Source: a virus
Taxonomy: Duplodnaviria; Heunggongvirae; Uroviricota; Caudoviricetes
Reading direction: 5' to 3' (one strand)
Length of the DNA: 43,678 nucleotides
IMG/VR virus record: IMGVR_UViG_2531839668_000011
Coordinates: 1-43,678 of that record
This document shows positions 15,001 through 18,000 of the stretch, in pieces. How positions within the stretch are numbered: position 1 is the stretch's first letter; each line of letters begins with the position of its first letter. The position numbers are program-made.

Positions 15001-18000
15001 TGAGGCGATTCGCTGGTGGATTAAGGACGGTGGCAGAGACTGCCGTATTCGCTCAAACAACTGTTACGGTCAGGTATCCCGTCGCGACCAGGAGAGTGCG
15101 CTGGCGTGCTGGGGAATTGACAGATAAGCAGAATATTTTGCTGAAAAATGCGGTTTGCTCACACGGACGGATAACACGAAATCCTGCGAACTGACAAAAA
15201 CTAAGTGAATAAAAGTAAAAACCCCGTTTGTTGGCTGCAAGCGGGGTTTTGTGTTTCCTGACTCTGGAAAAGTCAAAGGAGAAAGTGTGTTTGATTTTAG
15301 CAAACTGATTCGGGAGATTCGAGTGATGGCTGAAAAATTATCCACCTGGAAGTTCATTCTTATCTGGCTGGTGTTTGTGATTATGGCCTCCGGTTATTTC
15401 ATCGGTCAGATACGCTGGTGGTGAAATGAACCGCGTACTGTGCGTGGTCATCATTGCCCTGCTGGTGGCCTGTGGTGCGCTTAGTCTGGGGCTGAATCAT
15501 TACCGTGATAACGCCATAACCTACAAAGAGCAGCGCGATAAAAAAGTCAGTGAGCTGGAGCAGGCAAATGCAACCATTACTGATATGCAGCAGCGCCAGC
15601 GTGATGTTGCTGCACTTGATGCCAGATACTCGAGGGAATTAGCCGATGCGAGAGCTGAAAATGAAACTCTTCGCGCTGACGTTGCCGCTGGTCGTAAGCG
15701 CCTGCGGATCAACGCCACCTGTCCAGGCTCCGTGCGTGAAGCCCCCACCACCTCCGGCGTGGATAATGCAACCGGCCCCCAACTGGCAGACACCGTTACA
15801 CGGGATTATTTCACCCTCAGAGAGCGGCTGATGACGATGCACAAGCAACTGGAAGGGGCACAGGACTATATCCGCACTCAGTGCCTGAAATAAGTTTTGT
15901 TGATGCGCCGTATCGTCGCTGTATTCCCTCATTAACAGAGACCGCAGCCCGACAGGGAGACTCCTCTGCGCGAGTGTGCGGGGATAATCAAAAACGATAC
16001 ACACCGGGGTTTACCGCGTTAACGGAGCGCGGCGTTGTCCCCTCATAGTCGCCTGTCCGGTGCGATGGTGGAAGAAGCCGGATGTTTATCACTATTAATT
16101 GATGACACAGAAATGGATTCATTGAATTTCAGCACGTTTTTGTATTCGTGTTATTGAACATCTGTTTATTTTACTTTTAACATATTGATAATAAAAAGAG
16201 CTGTAAATCTTTAGATGAGTCGATTTTGTCCGGGGAAGTTCAAATGGATTTTATGCTGACGGTTTCTGGTGTGGTTATCCTGTCCATTGCTTATACTGCA
16301 GATAAATATGGCTGCCATTTGTTATCACGTATTGGCGCTTATTGTTCGTTGATGCTGATTTTCTCGTCGCTTTTTTTGAGTAAGTTATATTAATTATAAC
16401 AAATAATTTTCTGTGTTATTTTTTCAGGCTATCCCGTCAGAGGGGAAGCCTGTACTGCCGGGGAGCGAATGGAAAACTGATGTGTCCGGTAACTGCGTGT
16501 TCTGTGAACACCATGTTACTTAATTATGTAATTCATACCCGAACTCTCTGTTGACAGCCTTCTTCTGCAGGCTTCAATAACCCACGCTGAAAAGTTTCCT
16601 GAACCTTTCAGATCAAGAGCGATGTTAATTTGTTCAATCATCTGGTTTGGAAATCGGATGTTGCGGGTTGTTGTTCTGCGGGTTCTGTTCTTTGATGACA
16701 TAATGTTTCCCCATATTCAGTGTTGCTGATTTGTATTATCTGAAGTTGCTTTTACGTTAATTTGACGCAGATCAATTAATACGATACCTGCGTCATAATT
16801 GATTATTTCTCGTGGTTTGATGGCGTACACACATGTTGTGATAAACCTTATATAGATGATAATTATTATCATTTCGTGGGTCCTTTCCGGCGATCCGACC
16901 GGTTACGGGGCGGCGACCTCGCGGGTTTTCGCTATTTATGAAAATTTTCCGGGATCCATGTCCGGTTTCTCTTCAAGTTAACTATATGAAAAATATAAAA
17001 ACAGGTCTTCTGTGAACCGGACATGAACAAAAAACAGACATGTAAACCGGACATGACCGGTTTTGTTGTGATTGTGAGGTGAGAGTTTTTGCGAGGTGAG
17101 GAGTGGCTACGCAGACTGAAGTTGCCAGGCATTTGAGTCTGACCGATCGCCAGCTTCGCAGATTGCAGAAATTACCGGGTGCCCCGGTCTCGAATAAGCG
17201 AGGGCAACTGGATCTGGATGCCTGGCGCGATTTTTACATATCGTATCTGAGAAGAAGTAAAAACGATGTGCCTGATGGCGATAGCGAAGAAGACTATGAA
17301 GAGAAATTGCTTATTGCCAGATGGGAACTGACAGCAGAACAGGCTGTTACACAGCAGTTAAAAAATGAGGTGTCAAAAGGAAAACTGATTGACACCGGGT
17401 TCTGTATTTTTGCCCTCAGTAAGCTGGCAATGGCGTTATCCAGTACGCTTGATTCCATCCCTTTATCCATGCAGCGACAGTTTCCTGATTTAACACCGCG
17501 CCATCTTGACCATCTGAAAACCCTTATTGCTAAGGGGGCAAATCAGTGTGCGCGGGCAGGGGATAAATTACCGGATTTACTTGATGAATATATCAGAGCA
17601 ACAACTGAATAATATGATGAGCGCTGTCACAACTGCATTACAGCCCCTGATAAGGGCATTGCCGGTGACGCCAGTTGAATGGGCTGATCAAAATTATTAT
17701 CTGCCTAAAGAATCTTCATATGGTGAGGGCGAATGGAAAACGCTGCCATTCCAGATCGCCATCATGAACAGCATGGGGAATGATCAGATCCGCACTGTTA
17801 ATCTGATTAAATCTGCCCGTGTTGGCTATACAAAGATGTTGCTGGGGGTGGTCGGGTATTTTATTGAGCATAAATCCCGAAACAGTCTGCTTTTTCAGCC
17901 CACGGATTCTGCCGCTGAAGATTTTATGAAGTCTCACGTGGAGGCGACGATTCGGAACGTGCCATGCCTGAAAGACCTTTCCCCATGGCTGGGTCGTAAA

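Follow-up and report, generated by a model that had tools for sequence, protein, structure and literature searches.

To our knowledge, lambda-like packaging specificity has been worked out only for lambda, 21 and N15. Among the described cosB classes, those of lambda and phi80, of 21 and of Gifsy-1 have the order R3-I1-R2-R1, with R2 in the orientation opposite to R3 and R1; N15 has a simple cosB and Monarch a complex one (PMC9026076, PMC4669245). The R word is CGTTTCC(G/T)TTCT in lambda, with cores that we measured at +53 (plus strand), +114 (minus) and +154 (plus), and AGATCC(G/T)TTC in Gifsy-1, at +54 (plus), +114 (minus) and +155 (plus). We examined a 43,678-nucleotide stretch of viral DNA (IMG/VR record IMGVR_UViG_2531839668_000011; hereafter the window, meaning the whole of this stretch) that carries a site of this kind directly upstream of the terminase genes terS and terL. 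The site is very probably the lambda-style packaging initiation site (cos) of an E. coli lambda-like prophage. It would consist of cosQ, cosN and a cosB made up of R3, a site for integration host factor (IHF), R2 and R1, with a predicted specificity of its own for the small terminase subunit, TerS. The mechanism is of the textbook lambda type; the new part is the specificity class. Together with its TerS domain, the word repeated in this cosB, AACCGGACATG, points to a separate and very common packaging-specificity group that is apparently undescribed, and our literature search found no paper defining R words of the AACCGGACATG type.

The window was compared without gaps with the record of the lambda derivative DE3, which carries a 12-nt cos site annotation. 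Identity was complete over +1 to +45 (16908-16952, plus strand; 45/45) and reached 28 of 30 bases in the upstream flank, -30 to -1, cosQ included, giving 73/75 for the two together. From +46 to +120 only 19 of 75 positions were identical, which is the random level, and a sharp mosaic boundary lies at +45/+46 (window 16952/16953). From this alignment, 16908 was assigned as base 1 of the lambda-type left cohesive end, and the signed positions used here count from it. The records of phiARM81ld and N15 begin at the homologous base. A sequence-only reading of the window had claimed that about 45 bp around the cohesive end match lambda and that the neighbouring cosB is divergent and holds three repeats. 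The alignment with lambda cos bears out the first claim and the divergence, cosQ and cosN being lambda-identical and cosB not.

The predicted 12-nt 5′ cohesive end, GGGCGGCGACCT, forms the core of cosN (16908-16919, plus strand) and is identical at all 12 bases to the annotated cos site of DE3. The sequence across the nick runs from gggtcctttccggcgatccgaccggttacg into GGGCGGCGACCT and on into cgcgggttttcgctatttatgaaaattttccgg. The sequence of a 12-base 5′ end, strong identity to lambda (12/12) and partial two-fold symmetry are all present, and the overhang of lambda type expected from the sequence-only reading is upheld at the level of sequence. Upstream, the heptamer GGGTCCT (16878-16884, -30 to -24, plus strand) is identical to lambda and stands at the same distance from the nick, which is the cosQ position of lambda. 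The heptamer lies inside a block, GGGTCCTTTCCGG, that is invariant among 33 distinct cos regions of relatives. cosQ is described as a highly conserved 7-bp site (PMC4669245).

Beyond the mosaic boundary lie the only three occurrences of the 9-mer CCGGACATG in the 43.7-kb window: 16957-16965 (minus strand), 17017-17025 (plus) and 17047-17055 (plus), all within 99 bp. In shuffled sequence 0.25 matches are expected per window, and three or more were found in none of 100 shuffles. A literature search for this 9-mer returned papers on p53 response elements and similar only. The word common to the three copies extends to the 11-mer AACCGGACATG, which is present in exact form at R3 (16957-16967, +50 to +60, minus strand), at R2 (17015-17025, +108 to +118, plus strand), inverted with respect to R3, and at R1 (17045-17055, +138 to +148, plus strand), 30 bp downstream of R2 and direct with respect to it. 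These three exact words give substance to the repeats described in the sequence-only reading. R3 is the proposed critical TerS site that would place the large subunit, TerL, on cosN, and R1 is probably an accessory site. Published R3 intervals, which were defined by experiment, are 50-65 in lambda and 48-59 in N15, or bp 48-65 overall, and the distance between cosN and R3 is critical (PMC9026076, PMC4669245); the window R3 falls within this interval. Between R3 and R2 lies a candidate I1-like IHF site, TAACTATATGAAA (16979-16991, +72 to +84, minus strand), which differs at 2 positions from the IHF consensus, read by us as YAANNNNTTGATW, and has an A-rich tract after it.

Like lambda, the window has an identical cosQ, cosN and flank through +45, an R3 at about +50 to +60, an R2 inverted across a putative IHF-type site, and terS-terL directly downstream. 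Unlike lambda, its R word is AACCGGACATG, and no lambda or phi80 R word is present in 16953-17102. In lambda R1 is inverted with respect to R2 and 40 bp away, whereas R1 of the window is direct and at 30 bp. The same holds for Gifsy-1, which shares with the window a tripartite cosB of lambda-like geometry but whose word differs and whose R1 is inverted with respect to R2 at about 40 bp. The R3/R2/R1-like arrangement put forward earlier thus stands for the one inverted and two direct repeats and for the position of R3; it does not stand for R1, which has the same orientation as R2, so that the lambda-like tripartite orientation with R2 opposite to both other sites was not found. Judging from the order and strand of the words, the cosB architecture is a variant of the lambda-like layout. 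R1 is half of a near-palindrome, AACCGGACATGACCGGTT, and we considered reading it as inverted through the other half (17052-17062, 1 mismatch); this was rejected, the partner half being variable or absent in three relatives (L027, L104 and L105). A fourth, partial copy of the word, AAACAGACATG (17032-17042), was not counted as a site and varies freely in relatives.

We collected TerS homologues that have the N-terminal domain of the window TerS and read the DNA upstream of their genes, together with 80 IMG/VR loci. A scan of genome contigs with the TerS alignment yielded no confirmed relatives; those used here came from exact-protein look-ups and from IMG/VR. Eight diverged lineages from E. 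coli, Citrobacter, Salmonella and metagenomes (the window, PhiR12_1, L027, L105, L104, Citrobacter amalonaticus, Salmonella diarizonae and L004) were stacked without gaps on base 1. R3 at +50 to +60 and R2 at +108 to +118 were present in all eight. They were the two best-conserved 11-mers of +45 to +150, with mean identities of 0.94 for R3 and 0.99 for R2, the most conserved of all, as against 0.68 for the spacer between them and 0.59 for the bases after R2 (+119 to +137). The spacers are scrambled and the terS start ranges from +148 to +196. A match to the IHF consensus at +72 is also found in 8/8 lineages (perfect in L004, with 1 mismatch in Citrobacter, Salmonella and L105, and with 2 in the window), and TAA and TGA form invariant islands at this site. 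R1 (+138 to +148) was found in five of the eight (the window, PhiR12_1, L027, L104 and L105) and is absent from Citrobacter, Salmonella and L004; it appears to be dispensable in some lineages. Two distant homologues, L108 and L110, had no recognisable cos upstream of terS.

The overhangs vary among the stacked lineages (GGGCGGCGTCCG, GGGCGACGCGCT, GGGCGGAAACCA and GGGCGGCAGCGT). Flanks of cosN reassort with the AACCGGACATG-type cosB. In Citrobacter it is joined to an N15-like overhang and flank, and in L105, a relative of the window, to the Gifsy-1 overhang GGGCGGCAGCGT.

The repeats could instead bind some other protein, for instance a transcription factor of the phage or the host that controls late or terminase genes; TerS would then read something else. 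Their location immediately upstream of terS and the operator-like near-palindrome containing R1 would fit such a protein. However, R3 is held at +50 to +60 from the nick while its distance to terS varies (terS start at 148-196), and conservation does not extend to the other half of the R1 palindrome. Two further observations on the relatives, given below, also disagree with this explanation, namely that the word varies together with the TerS recognition helix and that relatives with a simple cosB have the second copy of the word within the coding part of terS, an unlikely place for an operator. We consider it highly improbable and keep to the reading of the words as TerS sites.

The terminase genes adjoin cos on its downstream side, along the packaging direction, and are both full-length. 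The terS gene (17103-17612, plus strand) has a GTG start, encodes 169 residues and matches Phage_Nu1; RefSeq relatives annotate a "terminase small subunit" at the same coordinates. The terL gene (17584-19512, plus strand), which overlaps the end of terS, encodes a gpA-type large terminase with GpA_ATPase and GpA_nuclease domains, and the same layout is found in annotated relatives. The likeness of TerS to lambda Nu1 is confined to its C-terminal part. The Pfam profile Phage_Nu1 (PF07471; 67.4 bits, cut-off 30) aligned with residues 61-150 only, corresponding to profile positions 73-163. BLASTP aligned residues 73-164 with lambda Nu1 at 46% identity and found nothing for residues 1-72. TerS matches PHROG 57 ("terminase small subunit") over its whole length and also matches PHROG 7289. 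A sequence search of the Protein Data Bank with TerS gave chance matches only; some TerS relatives have weak HTH_17 matches.

For residues 1-65, an AlphaFold2 model built from a 5-sequence alignment had a predicted local distance difference test (pLDDT) value of 79, with the elements beta (2-3), alpha1 (4-10), alpha2 (15-22), wing (32-36) and alpha3 (38-54). The lambda Nu1 domain has the same element order, with alpha2 at residues 17-24 and the wing at 31-39 (PMC9026076). The N-terminal domain (residues 1-55) is predicted to be winged-helix-like, with a recognition helix predicted at 15-22 (DRQLRRLQ). Foldseek neighbours of this model, with template-modelling (TM) scores of 0.58-0.65 and root-mean-square deviations of 2.3-2.7 Å, are all small winged helix-turn-helix domains. 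They include a 7lw0 chain from a study of a viral DNA-packaging motor, RacA, a 6hn7 chain from the RppC-TerS(lambda) complex, Xis-type excisionases and MerR regulators. This likeness of the modelled domain is supportive and is not proof. The full-length model was poor (pLDDT 63) and the Foldseek search made with it was uninformative.

Judging from these comparisons, the N-terminal 72 residues of TerS are a domain different from that of Nu1. The similarity to Nu1 restarts at residue 73 (about 17320), which is a second sharp mosaic boundary. Between the two boundaries, from +46 to about TerS residue 72, cosB and the TerS DNA-binding domain behave as one exchangeable cassette; such a unit also sets specificity in lambda/21 and lambda/N15 hybrids (PMC4669245). 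The TerS proteins of the other classes begin differently. That of N15, whose left end and TerS we read directly, starts with MAVLLNKSDMASSLGISVQ (MAVLLNKSDM...) and has an N-terminal domain that differs from the window's. That of Gifsy-1 starts with MNVNKKKLAEIFG and is Nu1-like, which the N-terminus of the window TerS is not. The contrast with phage 21 is drawn from the published description of its TerS as Nu1-like (PMC4669245) and from the lack of relationship between the window TerS N-terminus and the lambda/21 type.

Further information was obtained from relatives in Aeromonas, Pseudomonas and some Escherichia. These have the same TerS N-terminal domain but a terS start at about +78, and R2, R1 and the IHF site are missing. 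They carry instead an inverted copy of the R3 word within the terS reading frame, exactly at terS+172 and some 200 bp from R3. In phiARM81ld (L091, KT898133), R3 is at +52 to +62 and the inverted copy at +251 to +261; in LPPA33 (L093) the words are at terS-26 and terS+172, and likewise in L094, L100-L103, L106 and L109. The paired copies of these simple relatives vary in concert, as AAATG/AAATG, AAACG/AAACG and CTACG/CTACG. The in-gene copy encodes a linker, (E/D/K)PE(M/T/V/A), which is KPAT in L106, as its R3 word requires; this match argues for selection on the DNA. N15 has R3 at 48-59 and rR2 at 249-260 (PMC4669245). The geometry of the simple relatives mirrors this R3/rR2 pair in a different specificity class, and the comparison of the sequences supports rR2 being functional. 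As in the N15/Monarch class, both complex and simple cosBs (R3 with a remote rR2) thus occur in the AACCGGACATG class. The words themselves differ: N15 R3, GAGGTTGTTGTT, is not shared by the window cos.

Across these lineages the word and the predicted recognition helix change together. E. coli, Citrobacter, Salmonella, L104 and L105 have the helix (D/E)RQLRRLQ and the word AACCGGACAT. The word AACCGGAAATG goes with ERQFRNLQ in L004, at R3 and R2, and with ERQINNLQ in phiARM81ld and PCAh2, at both sites. LPPA33 has DRQVRNLI with AACCGGAAACG at R3 and rR2, L109 has DRQVRTLI with AACCGGAAG at both sites, and L106 has VRHVRRLV with ACCGGCTACG at both sites. The 5′ half of the word, AACCGG, is constant and the 3′ half follows the helix. 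A one-residue code, in which Arg at TerS residue 20 goes with C at word position 8 and Asn or Asp with A, was tried. It fits eight loci representing five helix types and fails in L106 (Arg20, ACCGGCTACG), and for this reason no helix/word code is claimed. The sequence-only reading had expected the small terminase to differ in recognition specificity from that of lambda. As far as sequence can speak to it, this expectation agrees with the Nu1-like C-terminal half, the unrelated N-terminal domain and the variation of the words with the recognition helix.

A related feature of the word was seen in L004 (568-585) and in the simple relatives, as at L091 (52-68) and L003 (45-61), where a second half-word, ATTTCCGGTTCCGGTT, comes after R3 and overlaps it. 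Read on the other strand this is AACCGG AACCGG AAAT, a tandem duplication of the constant half-word. The duplicated half-word could seat two TerS wings or helices.

Starting from the observed anatomy, the positional conservation, the concerted change of site and helix and the domain mosaic, we infer how binding, bending, cutting and discrimination would proceed at this cos. TerS dimers would bind the AACCGGACATG words through their N-terminal winged helix-turn-helix. An IHF-type bend at about +72 to +84 would join R3 (+50 to +60) to the inverted R2 (+108 to +118), and R1 (+138 to +148) would add affinity. The Nu1-like C-terminal half of TerS would hold the gpA-type TerL over the lambda-identical cosN, where TerL would make staggered nicks that leave the 12-nt 5′ end GGGCGGCGACCT. 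Packaging would then run rightward into terS-terL. In sequence, neither the R word nor the TerS DNA-binding domain is related to its counterpart in lambda/phi80, Gifsy-1 or N15/Monarch, and a separate packaging specificity should therefore follow. This specificity should be common to many E. coli prophages with the same cassette, and these, not lambda-specific terminases, could act on this cos.

The distribution of the element was examined in complete E. coli genomes. Of 5,426 genomes, 1,147 contain the 211-bp segment of cos and cosB with a coverage of at least 80%, O157:H7 included, with up to 8 matching places per genome when matches of any coverage, including those to cosN only, are counted. 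The cosN part alone is present in 4,444 of the same genomes. Among deposited phages, only PhiR12_1 to PhiR12_5 carry this cosB (92% DNA identity; TerS 99% identical), and the hosts given in their records are E. coli K-12 or E. coli C. Intact prophages, in which the head and tail modules are full, share all 211 bp of this cos with the window (100% identity) and have the same terS. In strain CFSAN004176 a complete head and tail module lies downstream of an otherwise identical cos, and O157:H7 genomes contain 100%-identical copies.

In the window itself, terL is followed by gpW-type, portal and protease/scaffold-sized open reading frames (ORFs). After the 501-residue protease/scaffold ORF, the interval 21281-23300 contains no capsid- or tail-sized ORFs, only some of about 200 residues, and only small ORFs are seen past 22786. 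The cos could be a dead relic of a decayed prophage, with the conservation of the repeats reflecting recent common descent of E. coli prophages. The lack of capsid-sized ORFs speaks for this, as do the degenerate R2 words (CCGGGCATG, CCGGATATG) of some prophage copies. Yet the window copy is word-perfect and fully identical over the 211 bp to the cos of intact prophages, with full-length terS and terL. The conservation is not due to recent descent only, because it reaches lineages with 60-70% TerS identity and scrambled spacers. Moreover, a cos can do without head genes of its own where these are provided by a co-resident prophage that shares its specificity. Asadulghani et al. 2009 explained the packaging of a terminase-defective prophage of O157 Sakai by a sibling prophage whose cos is identical (PMC2669165). 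A dead relic is thus very unlikely, and we retain the reading of the site as a cos that terminases of its own class could use.

Two described cases are close to the window in other respects. The "putative cos" and Nu1 of the O157 Sakai prophages Sp4 and Sp14 were aligned in the same study and resemble the window in having a lambda-like cos with Nu1 in prophages of enterohaemorrhagic E. coli (EHEC) (PMC2669165). The part of the paper available defines no R words, IHF site or specificity class. The cos of EcCICFT073, a phage-inducible chromosomal island (PICI), places a lambda-like cosQ and cosN on a non-lambda cosB, with R3 proposed at bp 48-65, as in the window. PICIs, however, are without terS and terL and need Rpp, which forms Rpp-TerS heterodimers, whereas the window has its own terS and terL and a tripartite cosB (PMC6739421, PMC9026076).

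Several points weigh against the interpretation of the site as an active cos with a specificity of its own. The Foldseek E-values for the small N-terminal domain, 0.4-1, are not significant. The IHF match of the window is weak. The covariation of helix and word draws on few independent lineages, and the simple residue/base rule failed in L106. The window prophage copy may never be used on its own. Finally, although its R3 differs from that of lambda, N15 has a terminase that packages lambda DNA with about half the efficiency (PMC4669245), and different R words therefore do not guarantee full exclusivity. The last point, together with the identity of cosQ and cosN to lambda, could be taken to mean that the shared cosN and flank dominate, that the cosB words count for little and that lambda-type and AACCGGACATG-type terminases cross-package freely. 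But lambda and 21 share cosQ and cosN, and are nevertheless discriminated more than 1000-fold via cosB and TerS; deletion of cosB leads to poor and inaccurate nicking (PMC4669245, PMC9026076). In the window, the absence of any lambda R word from 16953-17102 and the exchange of cosB and the TerS DNA-binding domain as one cassette, with boundaries at +45/46 and TerS residue ~73, also argue against free cross-packaging, which we regard as extremely improbable. A distinct specificity remains our reading.

Read in this way, the locus represents a further class, defined by sequence and set apart by its TerS DNA-binding domain, that is found in about 1 in 5 complete E. coli genomes and often more than once in the same genome. 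Its R word and geometry allow cos sites and specificity groups to be annotated directly. Cross-packaging among co-resident prophages becomes predictable, and this matters for the mobility of effectors and toxins carried by prophages. The relatives also provide a natural series of helix/word variants for the study of DNA reading by winged-helix terminases. More tentatively, and with slightly more doubt than confidence, we propose that the AACCGGACATG cosB and the "MATQ" TerS domain make up a fourth or fifth experimentally separable specificity group, dominant in the prophage pools of EHEC and enteropathogenic E. coli. In this proposal, shared specificity would decide which decayed effector-carrying prophages, that of the window among them, can still be packaged by co-resident helpers, and the concerted R3/terS+172 change of the simple relatives would be independent proof of a functional N15-type rR2.

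Some minor observations concern the immediate surroundings of the sites. A GATC (Dam) site at 16953-16956 (+46 to +49) abuts R3. At this position GATC was present in 68 of the 91 loci with this R3 context, GAAC in 20 and AACT in 3; the GATC has no counterpart at R2, at R1 or in lambda. It may be part of an extended R3. A 66-codon ORF runs antisense over cosB (16932-17132, minus strand); PhiR12_1 and one O157:H7 RefSeq record annotate shorter versions of it as "hypothetical protein". Probably the packaging site is non-coding and this ORF an annotation artefact. Lastly, contig L003 starts at +8 of the predicted cohesive end and contig L104 at +28, the records of phiARM81ld and N15 starting at +1. 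Such breaks at or near cos are, anecdotally, consistent with linear virion DNA in those samples.

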